Below, piece by piece: positions 6,063-31,173 of a stretch of DNA of 32,000 bases. The first letter of the stretch is position 1, and each line of letters opens with the position of its first letter. The stretch is from Nanobdellota archaeon. Its GTDB lineage: Archaea > Nanobdellota > Nanobdellia > Pacearchaeales > GW2011-AR1. Both the position numbers and the translations under genes were made by a program. The notes beneath the pieces were generated by a model that saw nothing but the letters and a program-made list of their open reading frames with translations, was not told where the DNA came from and searched no databases. The DNA is taken from contig JAHIHG010000039.1 in NCBI GenBank assembly GCA_018898425.1, forward strand, positions 12,725 to 44,724, written 5' to 3'.

Positions 6063-6689
6063 ATGGCCACACTAACCTCAGAACAATTACAGCAAGCAAA
6101 AGAACAAATCATCCAGCAAATACAATCAACTTTTCCAGAAGACAAAAAAGCTTCTGCAATAGCACAGCTAAATTCCATGGATGAAGAACAATTAATTGAA
6201 TTCCTAAAACAAAATAATTTAATTAAAGAAGGAGAGCCAGCACAACAAAAATGTATTTTTTGCTCAATTGTTGAGGGGCAAATTCCAAGCTACAAAATAG
6301 ATGAAAACAATTCATCAATAGCAATTCTTGAATTAAATCCTATTTCAAAAGCACACACAATAATTATTCCAAAACAGCATATTCCCAGCTCAAACAAGCT
6401 TCCAAAACAGGCATTTTCTTTAGCAGAAAAAATAGCTCAAAAAATTAAAACAAACCTTAAACCAAAAGAGGTTAAAATTGCCTCTTCAAACCTGTTTGGG
6501 CATGAAATACTGAATATCCTTCCTGTTTATGAAAAGGAGACACTTGAATCTCCAAGGCACAAAGAAGAAGAAACAGAATTATTAAAACTTCAAAAAAAAT
6601 TAGAAAAAAAATCAAAACCCAAATTAATTAAAAAACCTAAAATTAAAAAAATTAAAGAAAAACTTTGGCTTCCAAAAAGAATTCCTTAA
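6063..6689 (+). CDS. HIT-family protein with a degenerate histidine triad and Lys-rich tail
   Basis: The CIFCSIVEGQIPSYKIDENNSSIAILELNPISKAHTIIIPKQH core is HIT-like. Where HxHxHxx is expected the sequence reads GHEILNILP. The C-terminus is KKPKIKKIKEK-rich. Confidence 0.6.
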   Translation: MATLTSEQLQQAKEQIIQQIQSTFPEDKKASAIAQLNSMDEEQLIEFLKQNNLIKEGEPAQQKCIFCSIVEGQIPSYKIDENNSSIAILELNPISKAHTIIIPKQHIPSSNKLPKQAFSLAEKIAQKIKTNLKPKEVKIASSNLFGHEILNILPVYEKETLESPRHKEEETELLKLQKKLEKKSKPKLIKKPKIKKIKEKLWLPKRIP

Positions 6690-7528
6690 AACAAGTAAAA
6701 AACAAAATCAACAAAAAACCAGAGATAAATTAAAATTAAAAAACTAATTAAAAAAACAGGAACAAACGGAATTCCCTGCTTTATTTTAATTTGCTTGTAC
6801 TTCTTTTTTATTAACTGAATATCTTTTTGACTTAAGCCATCCCAGTTTGCCTTGATTAATCTTTTTCCAACCTTGATATTTTTATACAGCCAGTCACCTT
6901 CTGTTAATTTATTTACTCTTACTTCTTTAATCATGCAAACCTCTTCAATTGCTTTTGCATAAAAATAAAAATAAGGAAGTAAAAAAAACAACACCCCGAA
7001 AGCCATCAACAAAGGATTAATAAAACCAAAAATTACCAAACAAATTCCCAAGCATGAAAGCAGGTAAATAATTAATTTATTTTTTTTAAATTGCCTTGAA
7101 AATTCTTTTGTAAAATTTTTAAAATTTTTTATACTCAGGGCAAAACCCCAGAATAATCCATAAAAAGAACCTATAAACAAAAACACAATTAAAAATACAA
7201 TAAAAATTCTAAGATTAATTAAAAAATATCCAGAAAAAGGCAATATAGCTCCAAGAGCAATCATAAGTTTTGCATCTCCTCCTGCAAAAATTCTGCTATA
7301 ATAAAATAAATTGCCTAAAATAAAAAAAATCCCCAGCCCAATCAACCCTTGGTAAAAAAAATTAAAACTTGTTTCAGAAAACAAGCAATAAAAAAATCTA
7401 AAACCCAGTGCAAAAATTATAAGGGAAAAATTAACCCAGTTTGCAACCTCCCTTGATTTTAAATCCTGAATACTTGCAAACAAAATCCAGATAAATCCAA
7501 TCACCCATAAAAACATTATTTCATACAT
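6686..7528 (-). CDS. Prepilin/preflagellin (class III signal) peptidase, A24 family
   Basis: Polytopic, 280 aa. First Asp motif SIQDLKSREVANW and second Asp motif FAGGDAKLMIALG. Adjacent to the pilin-like gene array. Confidence 0.75.
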   Translation of the reverse strand: MYEIMFLWVIGFIWILFASIQDLKSREVANWVNFSLIIFALGFRFFYCLFSETSFNFFYQGLIGLGIFFILGNLFYYSRIFAGGDAKLMIALGAILPFSGYFLINLRIFIVFLIVFLFIGSFYGLFWGFALSIKNFKNFTKEFSRQFKKNKLIIYLLSCLGICLVIFGFINPLLMAFGVLFFLLPYFYFYAKAIEEVCMIKEVRVNKLTEGDWLYKNIKVGKRLIKANWDGLSQKDIQLIKKKYKQIKIKQGIPFVPVFLISFLILIYLWFFVDFVFYLF

Positions 7529-7867: not shown

Positions 7868-8383
7868 TTATTCTGCAGAGCAAGTATGAGTTATTAGTGT
7901 GTTTTTTGTATCTAAATACTGAACAAGTTTTCCAGCAATAACTCTATTATTTTCTTTAGGACAAGCCGTTTTTGCATTATCTAAATTAATTTCATCTGAT
8001 AAAATTATATCGCAATCAATGGAACATTTTTCTATGCCATACTGAGATTTTTCCTCCGACAAATAATAACAAGTAACATTTTTCAAAGTTTCTGTCTTTT
8101 CTTCAGTGTTTAATTCTCTCTTAACCCTGCAATAATCATAAACATTATTTGTAGAACATGCAATACTACAAGCATCAACAATTGTTTTAACATTATTTGA
8201 AGGTTTTATCCAAGGGGCAATATTATCCCAGCCAGCTATAAAACCAAATACAAGCATCACCAAAACTATTACTCCTAAAATAATTAAAATAATAGCATTA
8301 GTGCTTAAACCCTGACCTCTCTGGTTTTTTGGAAAAAAACTTGAATGAGGGGAAATCCTTTTTACCTCTTTTTTATTATACAT
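7868..8383 (-). CDS. Pilin-like protein with class III signal peptide and 8-Cys globular domain
   Basis: N-terminus ...KNQRGQG/LSTNAIILIILGVIVLVMLVF. The C-terminal domain has 8 cysteines. Last gene of the pilin-like array. Confidence 0.55.
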   Translation of the reverse strand: MYNKKEVKRISPHSSFFPKNQRGQGLSTNAIILIILGVIVLVMLVFGFIAGWDNIAPWIKPSNNVKTIVDACSIACSTNNVYDYCRVKRELNTEEKTETLKNVTCYYLSEEKSQYGIEKCSIDCDIILSDEINLDNAKTACPKENNRVIAGKLVQYLDTKNTLITHTCSAE

Positions 8384-8429
8384 AATTAATTCACGGTTGT
8401 TTTATTTATAAATATTTCCTTTAATTTTT

Positions 8430-8711
8430 TTAATCAATAGAAAATTCAACTGAAAACAAAACCCTTTTTTCCCACCATTTTAAGGGATTTAATCCAAAAG
8501 AAAAACTTGTTTTTTCTTGTTCTGAATAACGAGAAGTAAGTGAATTTGTTTCTATCTGAGAATTCATTTTTTCAATTAATCCAGTCCCAATTAAAGAATA
8601 TTGTTTTATTGATATGCTTGAAGAATAAAAACTAAGCAAAGCTATACTGCAAACTGTGAAAACTCCTATCACAAAAATAATTACCGGAATATCAGCTCTC
8701 TTATTTTTCAT
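8430..8711 (-). CDS. Pilin-like small protein (class III signal peptide)
   Basis: MKNKRA/DIPVIIFVIGVFTVCSIALLSF. Confidence 0.5.
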   Translation of the reverse strand: MKNKRADIPVIIFVIGVFTVCSIALLSFYSSSISIKQYSLIGTGLIEKMNSQIETNSLTSRYSEQEKTSFSFGLNPLKWWEKRVLFSVEFSID

Positions 8712-8946
8712 TTTCTTTTTTTATCCATTCATCAATTGTTGCTTTATTATCTTCTTTAATAAGATAAGCCAAGGATGTTTTTGACTTAATCCAATCAACT
8801 TGTTTTTTTGACTCTTCATAATTTATCTTTGTTGTTTTTGCTAAAAGAGATGAGGTATATATAAAAATCATTAACATAACAATCACCACAATTGTAGCAA
8901 TTATCCAGGTCATTGTATTGCTTATTTGAGCTTTTTTATTTAACAT
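8701..8946 (-). CDS. Pilin-like small protein (class III signal peptide)
   Basis: MLNKKAQ/ISNTMTWIIATIVVIVMLMIF. Overlaps both neighbouring genes. Confidence 0.5.
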   Translation of the reverse strand: MLNKKAQISNTMTWIIATIVVIVMLMIFIYTSSLLAKTTKINYEESKKQVDWIKSKTSLAYLIKEDNKATIDEWIKKENEK

Positions 8947-9463
8947 TTTTTTCTGTTTTTCTTACAACTGACAAAATTTTAATTAAATACTGATTTTGAT
9001 TTTTATCCAAAGTGTAAAATCTTCTTTCAATGCATTTTGCTAATTTTTCATATTCATTATCTTCTTGGATTTCACAACTAGAAATTAAACCTGTATTTCC
9101 TGCAAACACTTCTTCTGAAATAAGCTGTTGCTGCACATTATAAAAACTAATTTGAATATAATACTGTTCCTTCTCTTTCCAATTATATTCATCCTCTACA
9201 TTAAAATTTAAATTGCACAATTTCAAAAAATTATCTTTATTTAATAAAATTTTTCCTTCATCATTAATTATTTTTTCCCTTAAAGAGCCCTTATAACTTA
9301 AGCAATTTGCAATATTATTTGCTAAAATATTTGCTTCTAATTCTCTTGAATCATAGGGATTGCTATAAAACGCATAAACCATTGCAAAAATACCGCCTGC
9401 TACAATAATTAAAATAGCAAACCAATACACTGAAATTATTTTATCTGTTGCCTTTTTATTCAT
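8936..9463 (-). CDS. Pilin-like protein (class III signal peptide)
   Basis: MNKKA/TDKIISVYWFAILIIVAGGIFAMVYAF. Confidence 0.5.
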   Translation of the reverse strand: MNKKATDKIISVYWFAILIIVAGGIFAMVYAFYSNPYDSRELEANILANNIANCLSYKGSLREKIINDEGKILLNKDNFLKLCNLNFNVEDEYNWKEKEQYYIQISFYNVQQQLISEEVFAGNTGLISSCEIQEDNEYEKLAKCIERRFYTLDKNQNQYLIKILSVVRKTEKNVK

Positions 9464-9851
9464 TTTGATTATAATTATTTATTGAAAAAATATAGTAAAC
9501 TTCTTCACTAACATAAGGAGGTGAAACATCAACATTATTAAAAAAAGAATAAGTATAACCACTATTTTTACTTAGCTTAATCTGTATAATATTATTTTTT
9601 ATTTGAACAACATCTTCAAAAGGAATTCCATTTTTTTCTGCCAGTTTTTTTGCTTTTTCCATATTTAATTTAAGCAACATAGAAGGTTGAGAAGAATCAA
9701 TTAACAAAGCAATTTGTTTTGCATAAGATTGCTCTAAAATAATTGCTCCTGCTCCTTGTTTAAAAACAAACAAAATAAGAATTGTGAAAAAAACCAAATT
9801 CAAGATAATAAAAATTATATTTTCTGTAAGAATATTTCCTCTTTTTTTCAT
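9456..9851 (-). CDS. Pilin-like protein (class III signal peptide)
   Basis: MKKRG/NILTENIIFIILNLVFFTILILFVF. Confidence 0.5.
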   Translation of the reverse strand: MKKRGNILTENIIFIILNLVFFTILILFVFKQGAGAIILEQSYAKQIALLIDSSQPSMLLKLNMEKAKKLAEKNGIPFEDVVQIKNNIIQIKLSKNSGYTYSFFNNVDVSPPYVSEEVYYIFSINNYNQNE

Positions 9852-9888
9852 AACTATAAAAGAAAAATCTAATTAATAAAATTATTGA

Positions 9889-10797
9889 TTATTGAAAAGT
9901 GAGTATTTCTTCGCATTTGAGTGATTTGAATACATCTGAATTAACTTCAATTATTGTTGGACGTAAATATTCATCTCCAGATAAGCCTTTTAAAGTAATT
10001 CCAACCAGTGTACTTGTGGCCCCTCCTGTAGTAATAAGACCTGCCCCCACTATAAAAGGAACAGAAGGAGCAAGAGGGGTAAAAGTTAATGCAAAAACTG
10101 CCAAACCCAATCCAGCCCCACTTACTGCCCAAGATAAAGTGCTAATTTTACTAGAAATTCCAATTATAATATAAAATTGGTTATTTACATCAAAATTATT
10201 AAATTCTTTCTCTATTTCATTTAAATATTTTTCAAATTCTTCTAAATCATTAAAACCATATAAATATTCTAAATAACTTATTTCATTTTTAGAAATTTTC
10301 TTATCAGCCAAATATTCATAAAAATCCTTTTGATTAATTTTTGCATTTTCAATCCCATATCTTTCTTCATCTTTTTTCAAACTATCATCAAAAGCAATTT
10401 GAGAACAAATAGAACAATAAAGTTTTTTTGTCATATCTGATTGAACATAATCTACTTTCCCTTCCCCAAACATCCACCAGCAATCAGCCATTTCATCTGC
10501 TAGAACCTTGTAAAGCTCTTCTTTATCTTTGACTTTTGCAATTTCAGGTTTTGTCATTTGCTCACAACTACCATCAGCAGTAATACACAAATATTTAGTA
10601 TGGCAATTCAAGGAAACAGCTTCTTGAGCAAGAGCAGAATTTCCTTTTAAAATAACAGAATTATGACATACTTCTTTACTAGTTGTTTCTCCTAAATTTA
10701 ATCTAAATAAAAGAAATAAGATAACAGCAAAACTAGTAATTAAAATAATTAAAAGCACTATTTGCTGTGTTGTTAATTCTGCTTTTTTCTTTTTCAT
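9889..10797 (-). CDS. Pilin-like protein with Cys-containing domain and Gly-rich C-terminal hydrophobic segments
   Basis: MKKKKA/ELTTQQIVLLIILITSFAVILFLLF. C-terminal region AVSGAGLGLAVFALTFTPLAPSVPFIVGAGLITTGGATSTLVG. Confidence 0.5.
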   Translation of the reverse strand: MKKKKAELTTQQIVLLIILITSFAVILFLLFRLNLGETTSKEVCHNSVILKGNSALAQEAVSLNCHTKYLCITADGSCEQMTKPEIAKVKDKEELYKVLADEMADCWWMFGEGKVDYVQSDMTKKLYCSICSQIAFDDSLKKDEERYGIENAKINQKDFYEYLADKKISKNEISYLEYLYGFNDLEEFEKYLNEIEKEFNNFDVNNQFYIIIGISSKISTLSWAVSGAGLGLAVFALTFTPLAPSVPFIVGAGLITTGGATSTLVGITLKGLSGDEYLRPTIIEVNSDVFKSLKCEEILTFQ

Positions 10798-10898
10798 TAC
10801 ATTACCCCCATTCTTTTAAGCATAAAATACAATGCAGTTAAAACTACTCCAAAAAATACAATCCAGATTAAATACTTTATCAAACTATCAAGATTCAT
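10797..10898 (-). CDS. Possible 33-aa single-TM micro-ORF
   Basis: By-eye ORF MNLDSLIKYLIWIVFFGVVLTALYFMLKRMGVM. Its ATG overlaps the upstream gene's TGA (ATGA) and its TAA overlaps the downstream ATG. Confidence 0.3.
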   Translation of the reverse strand: MNLDSLIKYLIWIVFFGVVLTALYFMLKRMGVM

Positions 10899-11377
10899 TT
10901 TTCTTTAATTATAATTTCATTGTTTAATTTATTAATTAACAAAAACTGCTTGTTAATTTCAATTTCTAATTTTTCCTCTTTCAAATCAGGCACTATTAGA
11001 CAAACTCCATTCACGCTACATTCTTTTAATTGCCTATTTAAAAATTCACCAATATCCCAAACATCATCACAAATACATAAACAATTTTTTCCTGCACAAG
11101 AATTAGGTTTTTCATCGATAAAACTAATTAAATTCCAACCCAAAGGATTTTGTAATGCGAATAAAACCTCTTGTTTTTTAGCAGATCTAACTTCTTCAAT
11201 AGCTGTTTCAAGGCTTCCTGTACTATTTTTTAAAGTAGCTGTAGCATATTTTAATTTCTCTTCTCCAACTTTTGCAAAATATAATGCAGTTAAAAAATAA
11301 ATTAAAAAAATAATGCAAATCACTGCAATAATTATTTTTAAAGTTTCTTCTGCCAATAAAAATCCTTGCTTATTCAT
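10895..11377 (-). CDS. Pilin-like protein (class III signal peptide), Cys-containing
   Basis: MNKQG/FLLAEETLKIIIAVICIIFLIYFLTALYF. Confidence 0.5.
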   Translation of the reverse strand: MNKQGFLLAEETLKIIIAVICIIFLIYFLTALYFAKVGEEKLKYATATLKNSTGSLETAIEEVRSAKKQEVLFALQNPLGWNLISFIDEKPNSCAGKNCLCICDDVWDIGEFLNRQLKECSVNGVCLIVPDLKEEKLEIEINKQFLLINKLNNEIIIKEK

Positions 11378-11538
11378 TTTAATAAAAATAAAACAAAACT
11401 TGTAATATTCCCCCCTAAAGTATTATTAAAAAAATCAATTACATAATTTTTAAAAAAGAAATATAAACTAATTACTACAATTACAACTACAAAAACTCCT
11501 ACAATTATTTTTATTAATTGTTCAATTGTTAATTCCAT
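11374..11538 (-). CDS. Possible 54-aa single-TM protein
   Basis: By-eye ORF MELTIEQLIKIIVGVFVVVIVVISLYFFFKNYVIDFFNNTLGGNITSFVLFLLK. ATGA overlap with the downstream gene. Confidence 0.35.
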   Translation of the reverse strand: MELTIEQLIKIIVGVFVVVIVVISLYFFFKNYVIDFFNNTLGGNITSFVLFLLK

Positions 11539-11684
11539 TATATCCTAAATAAATTTTTAATTTGATCTATTAAAGTAAATCCTTTTTCTTTAAGTAAAAA
11601 AATAGAAATTACAATGATGGTAAGAACAGCAATTGCTATTAATATCCATGGAAGATATTCTGAAATAACCCCTTTTTTTCTCAT
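11538..11684 (-). CDS. Possible 48-aa pilin-like protein (class III signal peptide)
   Basis: By-eye ORF MRKKG/VISEYLPWILIAIAVLTIIVISIFLLKEKGFTLIDQIKNLFRI. Its stop overlaps the next ATG by 1 nt. Confidence 0.4.
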   Translation of the reverse strand: MRKKGVISEYLPWILIAIAVLTIIVISIFLLKEKGFTLIDQIKNLFRI

Positions 11685-11718
11685 AAAATCAAAAAACAAA
11701 ACTAATTAATAAATCTTC

Positions 11719-13872
11719 CTAAACTAAACCACCCAATACCACTGAAGACAAAATAAACAATGCAAGAGTTGCAATCAATGCAGTGATAAAATAAAGCAAA
11801 ATTCCTCTTCTAAGATTTATTCCTGTTTTATTTGTTTTTTCAAGCTTGTCTTCTCCAGAATCAATAGTCACAAGAGTTGAAGTTAAAATAAAAATTATCT
11901 GCACAAGATAAATTCCAATAGAAATCTGAAGATAATAAGGAGGTATCATTTTTGTCAAGTCAAAAATCTGCAAAATAGTTCCAAGATTTCCAATCCCTCC
12001 TGCTCCTGCTTCGCCTAAAGCAGGCATATTAAGCTTGTTTAAAATAGAAGTAATCATTGAAGCCAGGCCCACAACAATTCCAGAAAGAAGAGGTGCCAGA
12101 AAAACCATATTACTTTTCATATCAGAAACAATCTCAGCAAGCATGTCCTGAAGCCTGCTTGTAATTTTATGAATATTCTTGACATATTCTGAAATACTCA
12201 TTAAACTTATTGCTGCAATATTTAATCCCTTTTTTGCAGACTCAATCAATACCCTCATGCTTGTTGCAATTAAATCAGAAGGATAATAGCTTATTGCCCC
12301 TCTTGTTGGATTAAAAATAGCTTTTTCAACACTCATCCCCATTCTTTGAATATTATAATTAACTCTTCTAAAAAAATCCTCTGTTTTCAACCCTCTTGAA
12401 GACTCGGCAACTCTTCCAAAAACAAGCTCAGCAGGCATGCCATTGCCCATCCTGTTTCCTAACTGAAACAAAGAATTATTAAATTCTTTTTCAAGCTGCC
12501 TTGTATTTTCTCTTTCCACAATTAAATCTTTTGTTCTTGCCTTAAATGAAATTGAAAAAAACAAGGCAAGTCCAAGAGGAACAAACATGCTCAAAAACAA
12601 AGCACCCACCCCAAAAGGCCCTGCAGATCCATTTCCAGTATCAACAAAATCAAAAATCTTTTCCTCTCCAATTATTTCCAAACCAAGCTGGGAAAAAGCG
12701 TAATCTTTTTGCAGTCCAAACGCCTCAGGCAGAGGAGTATACTGAAAAATTAATGGCAAAAAACCAATTATAAAAAAAGGCAGACAAATCAAAAACGTAG
12801 TAAAATAAGAAGATTTATCTTTATACTTATAATAAAGAGGGTTTCTTTCAAGCAAGCTGGTTTCCCCATATCCCCCTGGCCTTAGCATCATTATTTTATC
12901 AGTTAAATAAAAAACAAAAAAAGGAATAATCAAATTAAATAAAATAAAAACATGATGCCATTTTAAAATATCTCCAATCATTGCTGAAGCAAGAGGCAGC
13001 AAAGCCAATCCAAGTGTAGGTAAAACAACCCCCAGCATATAAACATTAGTTAAAGGGCTTTTTACTGTATGAGTAAATTTAAGCATTTTATCATAAACCC
13101 CGTCAAGAACAACCTGCAATGCCTTTTCCAGTGTTGTAATTCTTCGTTCATTGCTAGGTTCAAACAAACTGCTTTCAATTAAATGAAATGATTCAATAAA
13201 TTCTGTAGAGTAATCTTTCCATGTTTCAAGATAATTATCCAGACTTTCTTTTATTGTTGAAAATTTTCCAATAGAAACATTATAAAAAACTTTTTTAAAA
13301 TCAAATGCAAGAGGGGGCTGCATATGTTCTGAAGCAAAAGCAATTGCTTTTTCCAGATTAGGAGTATGCCTCATATAAATTACAATATACAAAATAGCAG
13401 GAACCATTTGCGAAGAAGCTTTAAGCCTCCACTTATTAGCAAGCCGGGAAGGATAACCATTTACAAAATAAAATAAAAATAAAGCTAAAACCACCATTAA
13501 AAAGAAAAACAAAAATGGAAAATTCCCAAGATTTCCCTTTATCAAAGCTACTGAAACAGAAATTATCAGCCCCAGCAAAAACACACTTAAAAAAACCATC
13601 ACACTTAATGCCATTGGTTTCCAGGGTTCAACATCTATATGTGCAATATCAAGATTTCTCTTAATTTTTTCCTGATCTTTTTCAGCAACTCTCAATTTCA
13701 GGATATTTCCCAGACTATTGCACCATCTTTCATAATGAGTCAGCTCACTAAACATCTCTCCCTTAAACCTAATATATTCCTGACTATAATCAGCATTCTT
13801 AATTTCAGAAGTTTTTATTTGCTTCTCAATGCGAGCCCCGTGTTTTCTCAAAATATCTTCTACATCAACCAT
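11719..13872 (-). CDS. Polytopic membrane platform protein of type IV pilus/archaellum-like systems (FlaJ/TadC/GspF-like)
   Basis: 717 aa with many TM segments alternating with cytoplasmic helical domains. First gene of the pilin-like operon, and a FlaI-type ATPase lies in the same locus. The family call rests on architecture and context, not a recognised motif. Confidence 0.55.
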   Translation of the reverse strand: MVDVEDILRKHGARIEKQIKTSEIKNADYSQEYIRFKGEMFSELTHYERWCNSLGNILKLRVAEKDQEKIKRNLDIAHIDVEPWKPMALSVMVFLSVFLLGLIISVSVALIKGNLGNFPFLFFFLMVVLALFLFYFVNGYPSRLANKWRLKASSQMVPAILYIVIYMRHTPNLEKAIAFASEHMQPPLAFDFKKVFYNVSIGKFSTIKESLDNYLETWKDYSTEFIESFHLIESSLFEPSNERRITTLEKALQVVLDGVYDKMLKFTHTVKSPLTNVYMLGVVLPTLGLALLPLASAMIGDILKWHHVFILFNLIIPFFVFYLTDKIMMLRPGGYGETSLLERNPLYYKYKDKSSYFTTFLICLPFFIIGFLPLIFQYTPLPEAFGLQKDYAFSQLGLEIIGEEKIFDFVDTGNGSAGPFGVGALFLSMFVPLGLALFFSISFKARTKDLIVERENTRQLEKEFNNSLFQLGNRMGNGMPAELVFGRVAESSRGLKTEDFFRRVNYNIQRMGMSVEKAIFNPTRGAISYYPSDLIATSMRVLIESAKKGLNIAAISLMSISEYVKNIHKITSRLQDMLAEIVSDMKSNMVFLAPLLSGIVVGLASMITSILNKLNMPALGEAGAGGIGNLGTILQIFDLTKMIPPYYLQISIGIYLVQIIFILTSTLVTIDSGEDKLEKTNKTGINLRRGILLYFITALIATLALFILSSVVLGGLV

Positions 13873-13922
13873 CTTTTATCAATAATAAGTAATGAAAATT
13901 AATTAATAAATGTTTAGAAAAT
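13864..13922. repeat. Direct repeat copy 1 (59 bp, identical to 14809-14867)
   Basis: ATCAACCATCTTTTATCAATAATAAGTAATGAAAATTAATTAATAAATGTTTAGAAAAT. Contains the platform gene's ATG GTT GAT (13872-13864) and its upstream AT-rich promoter region. Confidence 0.95.
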
Positions 13923-13953: not shown

Positions 13954-14739
13954 TTAAAAATCATATCTAATTCCAATAATCCCGCCTAAAGCATTAACAC
14001 CTGAGTTCTTTTTTGCTATACCAGCATTTGAAGTATGCCCTAATTTACCCTCTACAAAAGATGACCATTTTTTTTCTTTATCAATATACTTACGAACACC
14101 TGCACCGGCTTGAAAGGTAAATTGCAATGATTGCCCAATAGGATTATTTTCTGTAGGTTTGTTTGCATCTGTATAAACAACACCTGCACCAACCTGAATA
14201 TATGGTTCTAAATCCCAACCATCTGGAGTTATATTATAGCGAATTAAACCATTAAGACTAGTCATAAAATTACCAAATCCTTTGTAAATAAGTGAATTAG
14301 AAAACTCGCCCAATAATTCAAAATTACCTTTAGGCAAAATCAAATATTCTTTTGTATCACTTTTCAAAAATGACCCACGTATATTTATCTGAGCATAATG
14401 AAAATCAGGGATATCTGGACCAATACCTGAAGGTGCAAATAAGGCCCCACCCCCTACTTCAACAGCTTTTAAAATCTTGTCCTCTAATTCATTAGACAAT
14501 TTCTCAATAGAATTATTCTTCTCTTTTTTACTAAATTCAACACCATTAGATCTATTTTTTAAATCAAATGCTAATTCAAAATTATAAGGTAAATAATCAT
14601 TCAAAAGCAACTCTGAATTACGAGGATTCTTAAATTCATTTGAAGATTTAAACTTCCAATCTGAAGCCATTGCAACATTATTTTTTAAAAAAAATAATAA
14701 AGAAGTGGCTATAAATAATTTCTTAATAGTTTTTTTCAT
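13954..14739 (-). CDS. PagL-like lipid A deacylase / acyloxyacyl hydrolase family beta-barrel protein with signal peptide
   Basis: Signal peptide MKKTIKKLFIATSLLFFLKNNVAMA/SD. The C-terminal part EPYIQVGAGV...IGQSLQFTFQAGAGVRKY...GHTSNAGIAKKNSGVNALGGIIGIRYDF aligns by eye, from my memory of the sequence, with Pseudomonas PagL (PFIEAGIGV...LGSSLNFEDRIGAGLKF...HYSNAGLKQPNDGIESYSLFYKIPI). The catalytic His-x-Ser is kept and the terminal residue is aromatic. Confidence 0.6.
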   Translation of the reverse strand: MKKTIKKLFIATSLLFFLKNNVAMASDWKFKSSNEFKNPRNSELLLNDYLPYNFELAFDLKNRSNGVEFSKKEKNNSIEKLSNELEDKILKAVEVGGGALFAPSGIGPDIPDFHYAQINIRGSFLKSDTKEYLILPKGNFELLGEFSNSLIYKGFGNFMTSLNGLIRYNITPDGWDLEPYIQVGAGVVYTDANKPTENNPIGQSLQFTFQAGAGVRKYIDKEKKWSSFVEGKLGHTSNAGIAKKNSGVNALGGIIGIRYDF

Positions 14740-14808: not shown

Positions 14809-14867
14809 ATCAACCATCTTTTATCAATAATAAGTAATGAAAATTAATTAATAAATGTTTAGAAAAT
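14809..14867. repeat. Direct repeat copy 2 (59 bp, identical to 13864-13922)
   Basis: Offset is exactly 945 bp at both ends. Here the duplicated ATG GTT GAT runs into TTT TAA, giving a 4-codon remnant. Confidence 0.95.
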
Positions 14868-15069
14868 GTTAAATCAATTTATAACTCTGTATTATTTCTT
14901 AAAATTACACTCGCACATACTCGAAACATATGAGATTATTAATGAAAAGATTATGTTTATCTCAATGCTTATATTAACTATTTTCTACTAATTGAACAAA
15001 AAAAGTAATTTTAAATCAATATAAGTTTATTATAAAATGCTGCATTAAATAATTTATCTTTTGGAGAAT

Positions 15070-15252
15070 TTACTTTTTCTTCAACCTCTCTTTTTCCTCT
15101 TCAATCTCTGCTTCAAAAGCCCTTATTTCTTTTTCCCAATACTCTTGCAATGCATAATTTTTCCCTTGATAAGTTTTTATTTTTTCTATATGTTCTTCTT
15201 TCTTTTTTTCTAAACTATTTATTTTCTTTAATTTTTTCTTTCTGCTACCCAT
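15070..15252 (-). CDS. Small charged coiled-coil protein, hypothetical
   Basis: 60 aa, K/E-rich. Overlaps the 3' end of the upstream AbrB-nucleotidyltransferase gene by 25 nt, so the true start may be internal. Confidence 0.3.
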   Translation of the reverse strand: MGSRKKKLKKINSLEKKKEEHIEKIKTYQGKNYALQEYWEKEIRAFEAEIEEEKERLKKK

Positions 15253-16004
15253 TTTACTTGTTCTTCTATTTTTTTTATAATATAACCATAAATCTTGGTT
15301 GCATCTTCAAAAGAAGTAACTCTTTCAACCCTCTCATCATTTTTTAATCTGATATATGCCCCATAAGAACTAATGGAATTTGTAATCTTTTTAACTAATT
15401 TAAGAAATTCCGTGGTACTTGATTTTTTATTATGCATCAAACAATCCACAATATATAATTCGCGCAATCTTAAAATTAAAGAATAAATAATATTATCTGA
15501 AATCATTTTTCCTCCAATCTCCAGCACAGCCTTATTCATTTTCATAGCAGATTTTGTTGTTTCAAAATGCCATCTTAAATTTTTTTTAGTTAAAAGAGTT
15601 TTTTTATAACCTAAAATTAAACTTTCATTTAACAAAACTTTTGCTTCCCTTAACATTGGAAGAATAGGAAGAATATTATTTTTCAAAGAATTTTCCATTT
15701 CTTTTTTAGAAATCAAAAGGAGGTTATATTTTCCTTGTTTAAGTTGCTTATTAGTTTTATTTGTTATCACCAAGATATCAATATCACTTTTTTCTGTCTG
15801 CTCTTTCCGAGCATAGCTTCCGACTAAATAAATTCCCTGAATATCATACAAATATTGCTGAAGAATCTCCAGTGTTTCTTTTTGTATATTAAAGGGTTTT
15901 TCAACAAGCTCTATTCTTGCTTTTCCACCATACCATTCTTTTGGCAAAACAACTCCTGCACTATTTCCTAATCTAATAACAGGCTTGATTAATTCTTGTT
16001 TCAT
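15228..16004 (-). CDS. AbrB/SpoVT-like domain fused to a minimal nucleotidyltransferase (MNT-type) domain
   Basis: N-terminus VIRLGNSAGVVLPKEW (swapped-hairpin AbrB/MazE-like). Then GIYLVGSYARKEQTEKSDIDILVIT (the GS...DxD motif of Pol-beta-superfamily nucleotidyltransferases). C-terminal helical region of unknown type. Confidence 0.6.
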   Translation of the reverse strand: MKQELIKPVIRLGNSAGVVLPKEWYGGKARIELVEKPFNIQKETLEILQQYLYDIQGIYLVGSYARKEQTEKSDIDILVITNKTNKQLKQGKYNLLLISKKEMENSLKNNILPILPMLREAKVLLNESLILGYKKTLLTKKNLRWHFETTKSAMKMNKAVLEIGGKMISDNIIYSLILRLRELYIVDCLMHNKKSSTTEFLKLVKKITNSISSYGAYIRLKNDERVERVTSFEDATKIYGYIIKKIEEQVKWVAERKN

Positions 16005-16135
16005 TTGTTATAACAATGTTATAACTCTTTATAAAATTTATGGTAATGAAATATTTTGAAAAGTTTAACCTCCTCCAAACAATCTCTTAAAACAAATCAA
16101 CTAGGTAAGTCTATAAGAAAATTTCCTTTCGTCCG

Positions 16136-17371
16136 CTAAAATATCGAACGAAACCAATTAAGAATCTTTTTAATCAATCCTTCACTAATACACTCTCCAG
16201 AAACACAAACATTGCTTTTACACTCAAAGTTATTTTCGCAAGACATTTCTTTATCTAACTGCTCTAAAAATTCATAATTATCAGAACAATAATTCTCACT
16301 TTTCCTATAACCAAATGGATAACACTTATTGTCTAATTCACAACCTGAACAAATGTAATCCATTTTACCATCATTTCCTAAAATTTCAGTGTAGATATTC
16401 TCTTCACCACCAGTAACTATTTCGATATCAAGACAAACTCCTTTTTCACATCCATTTAAACATTTAATAGGAATTCCCATAATACCATAATCATCTTTAC
16501 AAACCCACTCAATTAAAGTATCTTTTTCACAAGAATCTTCTCCTTGAATTAGTTGCCAAGTGCCATCAGGTTCAGGGTATTTTTCAATATCTATACCAGT
16601 AGTTATCCCTTTTATTGAATAATTTAAACCACTATCAGAATCAATACAAGAAGGTTCTGGTAAACAAACCCCAAATGCACACCCTCTTGGACAGACATAA
16701 TTTTCTTCATTTGCATAATCTAAAGTATCACAATAATGTTCATGGAGGGTATTTTTATCAAAACAATAGTCTGATAATTCTCTAAAGACCCCTGTATGAT
16801 CTATCCCAGAAACAATCCCATTTCCATAATAATTTTTTCCACCATCTGAATCTAAACATCTTGGAGATTTTGGAGCAACATATTTTGTAACATATTGCCT
16901 TTCAACAGGAAGATAATTTTCTCCATCAAAAATAGCACAAGTACAATTAGTATTATTTGTAGCAGTGCAATCCCCATTGCAAACATCATAACTTCCAGAA
17001 TATTGATGTATAGAAAATTTACAATCACAAACATCGCAATTCAAAAGAGAGCCGGTTATTTCATCATAAGAAACGCAACTAAGAGGTTGCATTATTTCTC
17101 CTATACAAGCACCATCTTGACAGCCTGAAAGGCATTCTATTCTCTGTACCCGTATCAACCCATCATCTCCACAGTAATACTCATCAATAAATAAATTATT
17201 CTGACAAACATCAACCTCGCTGTGAAAATTTTCATTCCAAAGAGAAATACCTTCTATAATACCCCTTTTATAAATATTAATTCCTCCGTCACTATCTTCA
17301 CAAGTCTCGGCACTCACAAAACTAATCCCCAATAAAAAAATTAAACCAATTAACAAAGTAAATTTTTTCAT
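16136..17371 (-). CDS. Secreted cysteine-rich protein with three C-x-DSD(G/S)G-x-N modules
   Basis: Signal peptide MKKFTLLIGLIFLLGISFVSA. Repeated modules CEDSDGGINIYKRGIIEG..., CLDSDGGKNYYGNGIVSG... and CIDSDSGLNYSIKGITTG..., each ending C..GC..G.C. Confidence 0.6.
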   Translation of the reverse strand: MKKFTLLIGLIFLLGISFVSAETCEDSDGGINIYKRGIIEGISLWNENFHSEVDVCQNNLFIDEYYCGDDGLIRVQRIECLSGCQDGACIGEIMQPLSCVSYDEITGSLLNCDVCDCKFSIHQYSGSYDVCNGDCTATNNTNCTCAIFDGENYLPVERQYVTKYVAPKSPRCLDSDGGKNYYGNGIVSGIDHTGVFRELSDYCFDKNTLHEHYCDTLDYANEENYVCPRGCAFGVCLPEPSCIDSDSGLNYSIKGITTGIDIEKYPEPDGTWQLIQGEDSCEKDTLIEWVCKDDYGIMGIPIKCLNGCEKGVCLDIEIVTGGEENIYTEILGNDGKMDYICSGCELDNKCYPFGYRKSENYCSDNYEFLEQLDKEMSCENNFECKSNVCVSGECISEGLIKKILNWFRSIF

Positions 17372-17511: not shown

Positions 17512-19800
17512 TCAAATCTTCCTCTTCTTAACTTCAGTATTCAACCATTTCTGCCATTCTGGAAAAACTCTTTTAGACAAAGGTAATCCAATTTCTTTAA
17601 TTATTTTTTCAGAAATTTTATGAAACTCATAATTTGCTAATGAATTAAAACCAGCCTCTAAAAGATTATTATCCCCAGTTAAATTAGACACATTAACAAG
17701 CTCTTTTTTTATCATTGCTCTTAAAAGAATATTATCATAAACCGCATCCCAGTTTCCTGCCCACCCCTTTACATTAGAAGCAATATCTTTTATTATCTCG
17801 CTATCTCCATTAATTAAATCATCACTTGGTTCTAATTCATCTTTTTCCACATTATATCTCATTAAATCCACAAAACCTTTTTCTTCAAGAGGATCTTTTT
17901 TCCAGTGCTTTCTTACCTCAGCTAATTGCAGCATTCTTCTCCATGAATGAAGCCCGTCAGGAGATTTTATTGGATTGCAAACAGTAATTATATCTGTTGC
18001 CTTAAAACTAGTAGCAGGCACTTCTAAATCATTTACAACCCTGTCAAAAACACCATAAGGTGAAGCTCCGTGAATTGTTCCTGCAACAACATTAGCCAGT
18101 GCTCCAACCCTCATTGCCTCATACAAAGCCTTGGCTTCAACACTTCTTACTTCCCCTAAAATTAAACAACTATCTCCTAATCTTAAACTTGTTCTTATTC
18201 CATCATCTGCTGAAACTTCTGAAGTAGTTTTTAACAAGGCAGAACGAACCTTCATCCTTAAAATATCATAATTAAGTTTTCTTAAGGCATTAACAGGAAG
18301 TTCCAAAGTATCCTCTATAACAATAATTCTAAATTTAGGAATAATTTCCAACATTAAGCTTCCAAGAAGAGATGTTTTACCAGAACTTCTTGTTCCAGAA
18401 ACAAGCAAGGTTCTTGAGCCACTTATTAAAAAACTCAATAAACCAGCAGCAAAAGGATTAATCATTTTATTTTTTATAAACAAAGGTAGGGTCCATGGCT
18501 CTTCTCTGTGTCTTCTAATAGCATAAGCCAACCCATCAGGAGAAAGAGGTCTTTGAATTATTGCAATTCTTGCTCTTATATTTCCTATTGATAATTGGGT
18601 ATCTAAAATAGGATTTGCTTCATCAAGAGGTCTTCCAGAAATCATTCTAAACTTTGCTGCCCAGGAATCTACATCTTCCTGGCTTGGAATAATATTTGTC
18701 AGACATTCATCATAATCCTGATGTCTTGCAAAAACCTGAGTCAATGGAATAGGGGCATTTAAAGCAATATCCTGAAGTTTTTTATCTTGAAGAAGAACTT
18801 CAATAAGTCCAAAACCAATTGTATTTCTCACAAGAATAGTCGCAAGTTTATTTAAATCAGAATAATTTATCTTAATTGCTTTTGTTTGAGCTAAATCCTG
18901 TATCAAATCCTTGGACACATTAAAAAAAACCTGCCTTGTTCTTTCAGTATCTATAAATTCTTCTGCTTTTGGTTGGTGTTCAATTAAAACATTTCTTGCC
19001 AGATTTAAAAGCATGCTATGATCCTCACTCAAAGAATTTTCTGGAGGATTTAAATGATAAATAAATTTTGATTCATTTTGCTTTTTCAAGATAGTCACCC
19101 AAGATTCATCAGAATCCATTCCTGAAATTTTATACTGGTCAATAATTTCTGCATCTTCTGGCAAATCCAAAACAAGCCTAGTAAAAGTAAAATTAGGAAT
19201 TACATCTGGTTTGAAAATACGATTATAAATCTCCCTGTCTCTTTTTTCATAATCTCTCATAAAAGATAAAGAAGTTTGAATCAGTTTTGTATTCTCAATT
19301 AACTTAAAAATCCTCTCTAAAAAATTTATATAGTTTTTTTGATCTGTTTTAAACTGAGTATCTATTTTTTCTAAAAAAATTTTTTCTTCAATAACAAGTT
19401 TTTTCATATCAGAATAAGCAGAAATAGGATCTCTTTTTAATAAAAAAAGAAAAGAAAAAATATCATTGTATCTTTTAGAAAAAAATTGCTCAACATTAGT
19501 AATTAATTTTTCCTGGGACAAAATCTTTTCCTGCCTGATTAAAAAAACATAAAGCTGAGCAATTTCCAAAAGCAAAAAGGTTTCATTAGAATCATAATTA
19601 TAATTTTTTTGCTGAACAAGAACAATTCTTGAAACATTTGGATTTTCAACTAAGGCATCAATTGTCCTTTCCATAATTTCGGGATAATCAGAAATACTTG
19701 GCACATAAGGAGCCCCAAGATAATTAATATAAAGAATATCTTCTTCCCCCTCTCTTTGCACCTCGTAAGAATACAAGGGTTTTTCTTTTTTAAATTGCAT
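17512..19800 (-). CDS. Type II/IV secretion-family ATPase (FlaI/GspE/VirB11-like) with long N-terminal extension
   Basis: Walker A in the segment LVSGTRSSGKTSLLGSLM, Asp box/Walker B RIIVIEDTLEL, and downstream LILGEVRSVEA and GTIHGASP motifs typical of this family. Confidence 0.85.
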   Translation of the reverse strand: MQFKKEKPLYSYEVQREGEEDILYINYLGAPYVPSISDYPEIMERTIDALVENPNVSRIVLVQQKNYNYDSNETFLLLEIAQLYVFLIRQEKILSQEKLITNVEQFFSKRYNDIFSFLFLLKRDPISAYSDMKKLVIEEKIFLEKIDTQFKTDQKNYINFLERIFKLIENTKLIQTSLSFMRDYEKRDREIYNRIFKPDVIPNFTFTRLVLDLPEDAEIIDQYKISGMDSDESWVTILKKQNESKFIYHLNPPENSLSEDHSMLLNLARNVLIEHQPKAEEFIDTERTRQVFFNVSKDLIQDLAQTKAIKINYSDLNKLATILVRNTIGFGLIEVLLQDKKLQDIALNAPIPLTQVFARHQDYDECLTNIIPSQEDVDSWAAKFRMISGRPLDEANPILDTQLSIGNIRARIAIIQRPLSPDGLAYAIRRHREEPWTLPLFIKNKMINPFAAGLLSFLISGSRTLLVSGTRSSGKTSLLGSLMLEIIPKFRIIVIEDTLELPVNALRKLNYDILRMKVRSALLKTTSEVSADDGIRTSLRLGDSCLILGEVRSVEAKALYEAMRVGALANVVAGTIHGASPYGVFDRVVNDLEVPATSFKATDIITVCNPIKSPDGLHSWRRMLQLAEVRKHWKKDPLEEKGFVDLMRYNVEKDELEPSDDLINGDSEIIKDIASNVKGWAGNWDAVYDNILLRAMIKKELVNVSNLTGDNNLLEAGFNSLANYEFHKISEKIIKEIGLPLSKRVFPEWQKWLNTEVKKRKI

Positions 19801-29596: not shown

Positions 29597-30118
29597 TTAA
29601 TTTAAAGAATAATTTTCAAGAGCTTCATAAAAAGGCTTATCAGAAGTCAGGATAGATTTTTTTAATTTAAAGCACTCAATAGCAAAATTTATTTTTTTAA
29701 TTTTTATTTTCTTTAATTCTTCTAAAAATCTTTTCTTATCTTCAATCTTCTTAACCCTTGCAATTGTAATATGACTCATGAATCTTTTTTCAGGTTGAAA
29801 AAAATCCTTTAATTTATTATCAATTTCTTTTTGTAATTCTTCACAATTAGTTAAATGCAACCAAATAATACGAATAAAATTTTTTGAAAAAACCCCAATC
29901 TCATCAATTTCTGCCCGGAATTTTTTAAACTTAATTTCTCTTAATTTATCCTTAATCAATCCAGTTTTTTTCTCATCTATTTCTCCTAAAAATTTCAAAG
30001 TCAGGTGTAAATTTTCCAATTCAGTTTTTTTACCTATAAAAAAAGGTAATTTATTCTGAATTTTTTCAATCTCTATTAAAATCTCTTTTGGAAAATCTAT
30101 TGAAATAAATGTTCTCAT
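29597..30118 (-). CDS. thpR: 2H-phosphoesterase: RNA 2',3'-cyclic phosphodiesterase / 2'-5' RNA ligase family (ThpR/LigT)
   Basis: Two H-x-T-x motifs (LHLTLKFLGE and SHITIARV). A start at MRTFISIDFP (ATG 30118-30116) matches the usual family N-terminus and overlaps the RT stop TGA (30117-30115). Confidence 0.8.
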   Translation of the reverse strand: MRTFISIDFPKEILIEIEKIQNKLPFFIGKKTELENLHLTLKFLGEIDEKKTGLIKDKLREIKFKKFRAEIDEIGVFSKNFIRIIWLHLTNCEELQKEIDNKLKDFFQPEKRFMSHITIARVKKIEDKKRFLEELKKIKIKKINFAIECFKLKKSILTSDKPFYEALENYSLN

Positions 30119-31140: not shown

Positions 31141-31173
31141 TTTGCGTTTGGAAAATAAAGTCCTGGATGAAAA

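Follow-up and report, generated by a model that had tools for sequence, protein, structure and literature searches.

A PagL-family beta-barrel gene inserted into a type IV pilus operon of Pacearchaeota

The archaeal DNA described here, a stretch of 32 kb referred to below as the window, carries within a type IV pilus operon an intact gene whose product is, as judged from its sequence, a beta-barrel of the PagL family (PF09411) and a putative serine esterase. Outer-membrane-type transmembrane beta-barrels are regarded as a hallmark of diderm bacteria and of the organelles descended from them, and lipid A as the signature lipid of these bacteria; here we have a selectively maintained PagL-family barrel in an archaeon, where neither its usual membrane nor its usual substrate is expected. 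The overall reading that we favour, and to which we give about an even chance of being correct, is that the gene is functional, was acquired horizontally and encodes an exported PagL-type esterase, the probable target of which is the outer membrane of a Gram-negative partner. The gene and the parts of its product are as follows.

13954..14739, minus strand: PagL-family gene, 261 aa plus stop codon (ORF listing; Pfam PF09411; 91 %-identical protein copies in assemblies L001 and L035)
14662..14739, minus strand: Sec-type signal peptide, aa 1-26, with predicted A-x-A cleavage after AMA (sequence reading; helix at residues 2-26 of the model)
14467..14661, minus strand: Lys/Glu/Asn-rich linker, aa 27-91 (predicted disorder, pLDDT below 50-60; fast-evolving)
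13957..14466, minus strand: eight-stranded beta-barrel domain, aa 92-261, with a hydrophobic outer face (AlphaFold, Foldseek and hydropathy alternation)
13993..14037, minus strand: putative catalytic segment H235-T-S237-N238-A-G ... N249 (profile alignment to 2erv)

The ORF begins with ATG, and both the coordinates and the 261 aa product given in an earlier sequence-only reading of the window agree exactly with the ORF listing. By inspection, the N terminus (MKKTIKK-LFIATSLLFFL-KNNVAMA/SD) is laid out in n, h and c regions like a Sec signal peptide and contains an A-x-A site, and residues 2-26 form a helix in the AlphaFold model; of the cleavable signal peptide proposed earlier the layout and the site are therefore present in the sequence, while its cleavage is a prediction. 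The linker that follows is confined to the copies in the window, L001 and L035. The protein ends in ...GIRYDF, with the terminal aromatic residue that had been pointed out before and an intact G-x-x-Y-x-F motif resembling a beta-signal.

A search of Pfam, which had been proposed as a check on the PagL assignment and in which a missing match would count against it, aligned residues 117-257 with positions 4-135 of the 136-position PF09411 profile at 56.2 bits (E=5.4e-15), well above the gathering score of 23 bits. The same family is the precomputed database annotation on all close homologues, some of which bear the names ‘lipid A 3-O-deacylase’ or ‘acyloxyacyl hydrolase’ through automatic annotation. 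The 261 aa protein has no match in NCBIfam, and a single-sequence search of the PDB sequences gave no meaningful match; a profile built from an alignment of 32 homologues reached the sequence of the PagL crystal structure, 2erv. The predicted structure has eight strands, with pLDDT values of 90-98 across most of the barrel, and its best Foldseek match is again 2erv (TM 0.71 normalised to the target), followed by the eight-stranded barrels OmpA, OmpX, NspA and Ail. Hydropathy alternates along the strands, the lipid-facing positions having a mean of +1.37 and the lumen-facing positions one of -0.71, a difference that was reached in 32 of 2000 shuffles. The window protein thus resembles PagL of Pseudomonas aeruginosa (PA4661, PDB 2erv) and of Salmonella in its above-threshold PF09411 match, in the size and strand number of its barrel, in a His-x-Ser pair with a following Asn on the same strand, and in having the third triad position at Ser+12 on the next strand. 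It differs from them in its low identity (about 17 % to 2erv), in an Asn at the position of Glu140, in the additional 65 aa linker, and in its host, an archaeon of a group not known for lipid A, an outer membrane or BAM.

The putative active site can be followed residue by residue. The triad of P. aeruginosa PagL, which we take to be His126/Ser128/Glu140 (in part after a review, PMC4402001), is aligned by the 2erv profile with H235, S237 and N249, and N238 falls on the Asn that follows the serine. Both the pairing of GHTSNAG with HYSNAG and the presence of Asn rather than Glu at Ser+12, originally read by eye, are thus borne out. The review attributes the PagL oxyanion hole to ‘the conserved Asn’, with its number not stated (PMC4402001), and we infer from the alignment that N238 would be this residue. 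Across the subfamily the His is present in 118 of 122 sequences, the Ser in 121, N238 in 116 and N249 in 115, with Asp at the Glu140 position in a further four; all four residues are kept in every archaeal copy, and conservation of this extent (115-121 of 122 relatives) is the signature of a maintained active site. The idea that Asn249 reflects degeneration in the archaeal lineage was rejected, since Asn is near-invariant throughout the subfamily (115/122), bacterial members included. A large PagL subfamily is accordingly predicted to carry a Ser-His-Asn triad.

A comparable constellation is found in OMPLA (PldA), a 12-stranded barrel that is activated by calcium-dependent dimerisation. Its residues His142-Ser144-Asn156 lie on the barrel exterior (PMC5043575) with the same His-x-Ser-x11-Asn spacing as in the window protein, and because OMPLA is an active phospholipase with Asn156 in this role, a lipid esterase can be active with an Asn as its third triad residue. 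The likeness is one of spacing: the window protein has no Pfam match to the OMPLA family at E-values up to 10, and its model has eight strands.

An exhaustive profile search found 845 relatives at E-values up to 0.001, compared with two in a word-indexed single-sequence search. The closest named relatives are from Desulfobacteraceae, Thermodesulfobacteriota, Verrucomicrobiota and Gemmatales, and it is this PF09411 subfamily of Desulfobacterota, Verrucomicrobiota and Planctomycetota that contains the true nearest relatives of the window protein, with 35-46 % identity over the barrel and a common signature (GxGVVYTDAYKD...EFTPQ...HHISNAG...N.G.NA.GG) that includes the Asn at Ser+12. The bacterial members occur in diderm hosts, in genes of 45-61 % GC and among housekeeping neighbours, whereas the archaeal gene is located in a pilus operon, is AT-rich and encodes an N-terminal region of another kind. 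The bacterial neighbourhoods (TrpA-, RuvX-, TruA- and TrmL-like genes, recognized by N-terminal motifs, and HAD hydrolases) gave no functional clue. Since the subfamily is otherwise found in diderm bacteria, the gene therefore reached the archaeal lineage by horizontal transfer; this origin, already suggested by the sequence-only reading, also accords with syntenic operons that lack the gene and with the repeat that brackets it (see below). Its composition became host-like after the transfer, the GC content of the gene being 0.30 against 0.285 for the window and its GC3 of 0.18 being similar to that of its neighbours, which implies long residence in the archaeal lineage.

The search for homologues in other DPANN genomes that had been recommended did yield further Pacearchaeota relatives, at a second, syntenic locus where the gene lies beside a diphthamide-synthase fragment and a DsbD-like gene (L015, which is a named Pacearchaeota MAG, L029 and L107). 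Such genes are rare, with three AT-rich loci among 80 matches in JGI metagenomes and one archaeal locus among 22 matches in species-representative genomes. Two long loci of lower GC, L108 and L112, were entertained as archaeal candidates and set aside as bacterial, as they carry FtsE/FtsX- and Rfb-like genes by N-terminal motifs; the neighbours on the short contigs of P0007, P0013, P0276 and P0277 indicated neither an archaeal nor a bacterial origin. A neighbour-joining topology suggested one clade of all AT-rich, putatively archaeal copies, and hence a single transfer, but this clade appeared in only 3 of 300 bootstraps and we do not accept it. Moderate support was obtained for the query with P0001 and P0013 (192/300) and for the group that includes P0007 and the named Pacearchaeota MAG (247/300); the phylogeny that had been suggested as a way of naming the donor lineage thus resolves neither the donor nor a single transfer.

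The surroundings of the gene are those of a pilus operon on what, from its gene content, is a Pacearchaeota (DPANN) chromosome, with archaeal markers in the window that include aEF-1beta, Hef with an intein and ERCC4, DUF2240, an A24 peptidase and a FlaI-like ATPase. The features that bear on the insertion are listed here.

6686..7528, minus strand: A24 prepilin peptidase (Pfam Peptidase_A24, 47 bits; weak match to the archaeal A24 C-terminal domain)
7868..11699, minus strand: run of small genes with pilin-like N-termini, a short charged start followed by a hydrophobic helix (translations)
11719..13872, minus strand: polytopic membrane protein of 717 aa, likely pilus platform, the conserved downstream neighbour (position; TadB label on some JGI homologues)
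13864..13922, unstranded: direct repeat copy B, promoter region and start of the 717 aa pilus membrane gene
14809..14867, unstranded: direct repeat copy A, upstream of the PagL-like gene, duplicated promoter region and first three codons (ATGGTTGAT) of the 717 aa gene
15070..17371, minus strand: accessory genes in the slot between ATPase and platform genes, encoding a 411 aa secreted Cys-rich repeat protein, an MNT/HalB-like nucleotidyltransferase and a 60 aa Lys/Glu-rich ORF
17512..19800, minus strand: FlaI/TadA-like type IV pilus ATPase of 762 aa, upstream (Pfam T2SSE; partial NCBIfam matches to FlaI and TadA)

A FlaI/TadA-type ATPase, a polytopic protein, pilin-like genes and an A24 peptidase are found together here, in the same order as in L025 and L026, two related Pacearchaeota whose pilin-like genes are also syntenic with those of the window. 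The 717 aa protein has no match in Pfam or NCBIfam and more than 100 homologues with 72-81 % identity, the few with a named source being mostly from Pacearchaeota or Nanoarchaeota, with one from Woesearchaeota and one partial Paceibacterota record; its position and the TadB label that JGI gives to homologues make a pilus platform its likely role. The archaeal-type flanks of similar AT-rich composition that had been described are therefore present, with the ATPase upstream and pilus genes downstream. Likewise upheld, by the Pfam score, the fold search, the 2erv alignment and archaeal synteny, is the central proposal of the sequence-only reading, that a PagL-family barrel gene of bacterial outer-membrane type is located in an archaeal type IV pilus locus. 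The content of the ATPase-platform slot is variable, with just a 62 aa ORF in L025 and a nucleotidyltransferase and a 133 aa gene in L026, and because it also gathers unrelated accessory genes such as these nucleotidyltransferase modules, the position of the PagL-like gene in the pilus operon may be incidental. We note that the same operon in the sister strains L001 and L035 encodes a membrane-anchored SLT lytic transglycosylase.

The PagL-like gene is absent from the syntenic pilus operons of L025 and L026. In the window it makes up, as the only gene, a cassette of about 0.9 kb that adjoins the platform gene of this conserved Pacearchaeota operon on its upstream side. It is bracketed by copies A and B, a perfect 59 nt direct repeat with a spacing of 945 nt; the repeated element is also present upstream of the orthologous 717 aa gene in L025 and is thus a conserved one, so that the insertion left a 59 nt duplicate of the platform gene's promoter region upstream of the cassette. 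The L035 sequence departs from that of the window exactly at the inner end of copy A. A chimeric assembly, in which a bacterial fragment has been fused to an archaeal contig, had been raised as an explanation, and in its favour are the otherwise bacterial distribution of the family and the closeness of the gene to a contig end in both L001 and L035 (150-200 nt on its upstream side). We regard it as effectively refuted: the GC3 of 0.18 is host-like and far from the 45-61 % GC of the bacterial homologues, L001 and L035, which come from other assemblies, have a junction of the PagL-like gene with the 717 aa gene identical to that in the window, the gene is enclosed by a duplicate of its archaeal neighbour's own promoter region and start codon, and its nearest relatives lie on other AT-rich contigs, of which one is from a named Pacearchaeota MAG.

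The pattern of substitutions differs between the barrel and the linker. The barrel is under purifying selection, with a dN/dS of 0.16 and a dS (0.18) nearly equal to that of the neighbouring gene (0.19); comparison of the linker with that of L001 shows 13 non-synonymous and two synonymous changes, a dN/dS of about 1.4 on small counts. If the gene had landed by chance in a slot prone to recombination and were now on course to decay as a neutral passenger, the variability of the ATPase-platform slot between strains and species, the restriction of the gene at the pilus site to a narrow lineage and the linker ratio would all be accounted for. The ORF is intact in three assemblies, however, the constraint on the barrel is seen at a dS comparable with that of an essential pilus neighbour, the fully host-like composition speaks for long residence, and relatives are maintained at the second, syntenic locus in other Pacearchaeota, and we consider such a passenger decidedly improbable. 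Nor do we give much credence to a barrel that is not a catalyst at all and serves as an adhesin or anchor plugged into a partner membrane, or as a small pore, with the PagL chemistry irrelevant. The long flexible linker would suit a tether and the next-best fold matches are the structural or adhesin barrels OmpA, OmpX, NspA and Ail, but H235, S237, N238 and N249 are kept by every archaeal copy and by 115-121 of 122 relatives, which argues against it.

An esterase that acts at home has also to be weighed. Here the exported protein would remain attached to the archaeal envelope, the window protein through a signal anchor that is not cleaved and the copies containing the sequence FFAGC possibly through a lipid anchor. 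The barrel would sit in the outer leaflet of the archaeal membrane, or in vesicles that the cell releases, and would remodel ester lipids scavenged by a lipid-auxotrophic cell. DPANN archaea commonly lack lipid synthesis and take their lipids from partners, all archaeal copies have an N-terminal hydrophobic segment followed by a linker and then the barrel, L015 and L029 contain the lipobox-like FFAGC, and purifying selection on the barrel would be expected whatever the target. Against this, the Cys of FFAGC is not conserved, being S or Y in the nearest relatives, the A-x-A motif of the window protein makes a good signal-peptidase site, a beta-barrel membrane protein in an archaeal cytoplasmic membrane is not known, and archaeal core lipids are ethers that an esterase would not cleave; we think a role in the own envelope unlikely. 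Far less likely still is that Pacearchaeota have an outer membrane of their own in which the barrel is housed. The beta-signal-like motif is intact, the barrel has a hydrophobic belt, and we know of no imaging of a Pacearchaeota envelope; but no outer-membrane biogenesis or LPS gene, BamA, Lpt and Lpx included, was found in the 32 kb window or in the archaeal loci examined, and the gene occurs rarely and patchily in the lineage, as would not be expected of a core component of the envelope.

Action on a Gram-negative partner, whose envelope is probably the target, would proceed as follows. The gene would be transcribed together with the pilus genes and its product exported, and the barrel would then insert itself into a foreign membrane, namely the outer membrane of a Gram-negative bacterium held by the pilus; insertion into a foreign membrane is the most likely course because Pacearchaeota have no known lipid A, bacterial-type outer membrane or BAM. 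Once in the partner outer membrane, the barrel could hydrolyse acyl chains held by ester bonds in lipid A or in phospholipids, and the partner envelope might be loosened or vesiculated, or its lipids harvested. To our knowledge no bacterial host of Pacearchaeota has been described, and we know of no precedent for the delivery of a hydrophobic barrel through an archaeal S-layer into the membrane of another cell. The most specific form of the proposal, a cross-domain effector in which a Sec-exported barrel esterase inserts without BAM after pilus contact and removes the acyl chains of lipid A or phospholipids, with a partner possibly among the Desulfobacterota and the lytic transglycosylase working alongside it in the sister strains, is put forward tentatively. 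Individual steps have parallels elsewhere: BAM is not needed for outer-membrane enzymes to fold into liposomes in vitro (PMC7617971), and deacylation by PagL sets off the formation of outer-membrane vesicles in Salmonella (PMC4958258).

The closest archaeal analogues are the lytic transglycosylases of Woese- and Pacearchaeota and other archaeal peptidoglycan hydrolases, which are proposed or shown to target bacteria (PMC8204110, PMC9723730, PMC12352652). Like the PagL-like protein, these are transferred enzymes of bacterial type, prominent in Nanoarchaeota and DPANN, whose only obvious substrate is the bacterial envelope; they are, however, soluble or anchored glycosidases and peptidases, whereas the window protein is a barrel of the integral-membrane type with a putative target among outer-membrane lipids. 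Our literature search brought up no description of a DPANN archaeon with PagL or another outer-membrane barrel, nor of an archaeal barrel enzyme of the integral-membrane type that acts on outer-membrane lipids.

That a tiny archaeon with no known bacterial-type outer membrane keeps a bacteria-derived gene of this kind under selection hints at work on the envelope of Gram-negative neighbours. As regards the hosts of Pacearchaeota and Woesearchaeota, the published hints that some target bacteria rest on peptidoglycan hydrolases. To these the PagL-like gene adds a putative enzyme directed at the outer membrane, and it suggests that the donor or partner belongs to a guild from the same kinds of anoxic habitats. 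Should the effector reading be correct, it would provide a molecular handle on the bacterial hosts or prey of DPANN archaea; an archaeon that deploys a transmembrane beta-barrel enzyme would, as far as we know, be without precedent. The protein is small and can be expressed, refolded and assayed, which makes the idea directly testable. We note also that the substrate of the Ser-His-Asn-type PagL subfamily deserves study in bacteria as well.

The PagL-like gene is flanked by two copies of a direct repeat and lies directly upstream of a likely pilus platform gene, arranged in the window as follows:

11719-13872 (-), 717-aa membrane protein, likely the pilus platform gene
13864-13922, first copy of a perfect 59-nt direct repeat
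13954-14739 (-), PagL-like gene, 261-aa product
14809-14867, second copy of the repeat (copy A), 945 nt from the first
17512-19800 (-), ATPase

The ORF listing gives the PagL-like gene exactly the extent and length assigned to it by the sequence-only reading, with an ATG start. Charged, hydrophobic and A-x-A parts follow one another at the N-terminus of the product (MKKTIKK, LFIATSLLFFL, KNNVAMA/SD), the layout of a predicted Sec signal peptide, and the protein is predicted to be of the exported type. The HMM search which that reading had proposed found a significant match to Pfam PagL (PF09411; E=5.4e-15, 56.2 bits against a gathering score of 23), with residues 117-257 aligned to nearly the full length of the profile (positions 4-135 of 136); no NCBIfam model matched. 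An eight-stranded barrel was already predicted by AlphaFold from three sequences, and with 32 homologs the barrel spans residues 92-260 (pLDDT 90-98 across most), preceded by a helix at residues 2-26 and a low-confidence stretch at 27-90. The best PDB match for both models is 2erv, the Pseudomonas aeruginosa PagL crystal structure (TM 0.71, normalised to target), followed by NspA, OmpW, OmpA and OmpX, also eight-stranded outer-membrane barrels. Strand hydropathy alternates: one face averages +1.37 and the other -0.71, a difference reached by just 32 of 2000 within-strand shuffles. The hydrophobic face of the model holds H235, S237 and N249, as would be expected of a barrel that sits in a membrane and has its active site on the outside, and the C-terminal G-I-R-Y-D-F agrees with the usual end motif of outer-membrane proteins.

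Alignment to the 2erv sequence, made with a profile of the 32 homologs (E=1.4e-05), pairs H235, S237 and N249 with His126, Ser128 and Glu140 (numbered as in Rutten et al. 2006) and N238 with the Asn after Ser128; the alignment originally made by eye, including Asn at Ser+12, was thus correct. When the query was aligned with the 100 best cluster representatives and 21 genome-derived homologs, His was found at position 235 in 118 of the 122 sequences, Ser at 237 in 121, Asn at 238 in 116 and Asn at 249 in 115, with Asp in four at this last position. Since Asn is so general among these relatives, Asn249 is not a lesion of the archaeal copy. A review describes PagL as a barrel of eight strands in which the triad is Ser-His-Glu and a conserved Asn forms part of the oxyanion hole (PMC4402001), and OMPLA has a His142-Ser144-Asn156 triad on the barrel exterior (PMC5043575). 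The His-x-Ser-x11-Asn spacing is the same in OMPLA and the PagL-like protein, so that the constellation is compatible with an active lipid esterase. The protein resembles the PagL family in sequence, predicted fold and His-x-Ser, and its N238 may correspond to the oxyanion-hole Asn, but it lacks the acidic triad residue and does not come from a diderm that produces LPS. We therefore prefer to call it a variant that would work like a PagL/OMPLA-type barrel esterase; it belongs to an uncharacterised Ser-His-Asn subfamily. The setting here is an archaeon, with a long linker and a position inside a pilus operon.

In an exhaustive profile search, 845 cluster representatives reached an E of 0.001 or better, 72 of them 1e-30 or better. 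The names that homologs carry in their sources are 'acyloxyacyl hydrolase' or 'lipid A 3-O-deacylase'. Among species-representative genomes there are 22 confirmed loci, 21 of them in diderm bacteria: Desulfobacteraceae, Thermodesulfobacteriota and Candidatus Desulfacyla; Verrucomicrobiota; MAGs labelled Blastochloris; Gemmatales; and one unclassified Deltaproteobacteria MAG. This distribution bears out the horizontal acquisition proposed earlier, and an origin from diderm bacteria is clear. The proposed phylogeny fixes neither the donor lineage nor the number of transfers: a neighbour-joining tree places all AT-rich sequences together within a Desulfobacterota-rich region, and this clade is not supported (3/300 bootstrap replicates). 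Support is moderate for the query with P0001 and P0013 (192/300) and for the P0007 group, which includes the named Pacearchaeota MAG (247/300). Some bacterial members of the subfamily, such as P0005 and P0290 (474 aa), have the barrel fused to a C-terminal extension; for P0290 the database lists PF11741, the AMIN domain.

The search of other DPANN genomes suggested by the sequence-only reading was productive, as the 22nd locus (L015) is from Pacearchaeota MAG Meg19_1012_Bin_451. Its GC content is 0.28, and its neighbours include, by eye, ribosomal protein S10-like and MGMT-like genes and, by Pfam, a diphthamide-synthase fragment (43 bits) that is present also in L029. In L029 and L107, as in L015, the PagL-like gene and a DsbD-like membrane gene are on opposite strands, and this makes a second, syntenic archaeal locus type; its copies have a lipobox-like FFAGC, whose Cys is not kept in the nearest relatives. 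The diphthamide-synthase matches directly upstream of the PagL-like gene (L015:2023-2310 and L029:629-964, 95-111 aa) cover only the first ~59 of 302 profile positions, and this gene thus appears to be truncated or split. AT-rich loci were only 3/80 in a JGI metagenome scan. Two lower-GC long loci considered as archaeal candidates proved bacterial.

Several features of the window are archaeal. It encodes aEF-1beta, DUF2240/OB-fold and PRC-barrel proteins, a FlaI/TadA-like ATPase, and an A24 prepilin peptidase for which the archaeal C-terminal domain gave a weak match; it also has a Hef-type helicase that contains an intein, with an ERCC4 nuclease coming next. For the 717-aa protein, over 100 homologs share 72-81% identity with it. 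Most carry no source name; among the few named, Candidatus Pacearchaeota or Nanoarchaeota predominate, and there is a single record each for Woesearchaeota and (partial) Paceibacterota. Gene order is much the same in L025 (assembly GCA_030611805.1), an operon that has no PagL-like gene: helicase ... PRC ... ATPase, platform gene, pilin-like genes, A24 peptidase, HIT, EF-1beta and RPA-like. These markers, homologs and synteny place the window on a Pacearchaeota (DPANN) chromosome, and the cluster around the PagL-like gene is a conserved type IV pilus operon.

The sequence-only reading had also allowed for a chimeric assembly, an explanation that the bacterial affinities of the gene might invite. 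The homologous genes of bacterial genomes have 45-61% GC, and the PagL-like gene has GC 0.30 and GC3 0.18, like its neighbours (GC3 0.16-0.25); the flanks are of archaeal type and of the same AT-rich composition, as first described. Two sister-strain assemblies, L001 (ENA ERZ27247113) and L035 (JGI Ga0180015), carry copies with 91% protein identity, and there, as in the window, the 81-nt spacer and the 717-aa gene come next. The bracketing 59-nt repeat consists of an AT-rich element upstream of the 717-aa gene, conserved upstream of the L025 orthologue, and the first three codons of the 717-aa gene, ATGGTTGAT; the upstream copy terminates in a vestigial ATG GTT GAT TTT TAA. Similarity between L035 and the window sets in precisely at GGTTGAT, where copy A has its inner end (L035 position 123, window position 14815), so that close strains differ in what lies to the left of the cassette. 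The DNA beyond it (L035:1-123, compared with window 14809-14940) is unrelated to the window and resembles the 3′ end of a different gene. Between the ATPase and platform genes, L025 has a 62-aa ORF and L026, also without the PagL-like gene, a nucleotidyltransferase pair; only one cluster exceeds 50% identity to the PagL-like protein, against the many close homologs of the platform gene. Taken together, composition, shared junctions, repeat, L035 boundary and absence from L025 and L026 show that a single-gene cassette of ~0.9 kb went in at the 5′ end of the platform gene, duplicating its promoter region, in a narrow lineage only, and misassembly is excluded for practical purposes. L025 has, after the conserved promoter-like element and ahead of its 716-aa gene, ~45 nt that the window lacks (L025:7945-8000), with, by eye, an apparent inverted repeat (CTTCG...CGAAG).

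Nei-Gojobori estimates, window against L001 (counts are small)
Region; non-synonymous; synonymous; dN/dS; dS
Barrel; 11; 18; 0.16; 0.18
Signal peptide and linker; 13; 2; about 1.4; 0.04
717-aa gene (control); 17.5; 78.5; 0.055; 0.19

The similar dS of barrel and control suggests that the common ancestor of the two strains already had the cassette. On these small counts purifying selection acts on the barrel, which speaks against the view that the gene is a neutral passenger, and the linker evolves freely or is diversifying. That a real, transferred and maintained PagL-family esterase gene is present in a Pacearchaeota genome we hold to be very probable. Its presence is solid and would surprise a specialist; we infer its mechanism. 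Acquisition of bacterial genes by DPANN archaea is common in itself, and a literature search of limited coverage found no report of PagL or any outer-membrane-type barrel in these archaea.

The gene is probably co-transcribed with the archaeal pilus operon that encodes it, and its product keeps a conserved esterase site intact, which the model places on the side of an outer-membrane-type barrel that faces the lipid; a non-catalytic anchor would share the barrel and the linker, and the conserved site is the feature to weigh against it. A role in the cell's own envelope, or an outer membrane belonging to the archaeon itself, would keep the barrel at home. We know of no Pacearchaeota that make LPS or have BAM, and the loci examined contain no genes for either, so the most economical model would have the barrel act on a foreign membrane. 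This model gains plausibility from the self-folding of outer-membrane enzymes into liposomes in vitro (PMC7617971), from the promotion of outer-membrane vesiculation by PagL-type deacylation in Salmonella (PMC4958258) and from a sister-strain protein whose only evident substrate is the bacterial wall. The latter, a 261-aa pilus-operon product of L001 (3374-4159), combines an SLT lytic transglycosylase domain (34.7 bits, cut-off 21.3) with a transmembrane segment at the N-terminus, and ORF size and position indicate a counterpart at L035:3421-4206; no SLT domain was found anywhere in the window, which has two small ORFs (11374-11699) at that place. Lytic transglycosylases of Woese-/Pacearchaeota have been proposed to serve in attachment to or attack on bacteria (PMC8204110, PMC9723730), and archaeal peptidoglycan hydrolases, of which Nanoarchaeota are prominent carriers, kill bacteria (PMC12352652). 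The outer membrane of a Gram-negative partner has, in our estimate, an even or slightly less than even chance of being the target, and the whole explanation, maintained esterase gene and Gram-negative target together, we put at about even. With the PagL-like gene, the 'bacterial host or prey' idea can be put to the test.

The slot between the ATPase and platform genes is variable. It holds in the window a gene (16136-17371) for a 411-aa secreted protein with repeated Cys-rich modules (C.DSDGG.N.Y..G...G ... C..GC..G.C) that matched nothing in Pfam or NCBIfam, and, at 15070-16004, a nucleotidyltransferase that resembles MntA antitoxin and Hailong HalB at sub-threshold scores, together with a Lys/Glu-rich ORF of 60 aa that follows and overlaps it. 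The pair in the L026 slot is a nucleotidyltransferase and a 133-aa gene, and these modules suggest that the slot gathers toxin-antitoxin or defence-like genes. The intein in the DEAD/Helicase_C helicase (25347-28424) has a LAGLIDADG homing-endonuclease domain; the L025 orthologue is called at only 517 aa and is presumably without intein. A diversity-generating retroelement occupies 30115-31793:

30115-31140 (-), reverse transcriptase
31179-31274, template repeat, 96 nt
31258-31416 (-), Rfam RT-16 RNA, 99.9 bits
31516-31611, variable repeat, 80% identical to the template repeat

The RNA shares with the template repeat the last 17 nt of that repeat and stops before the variable repeat, which sits in the 3′ part of an ORF at 31464-31793 (-). 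By eye, most mismatches between the repeats are at plus-strand T, that is, A on the coding strand.
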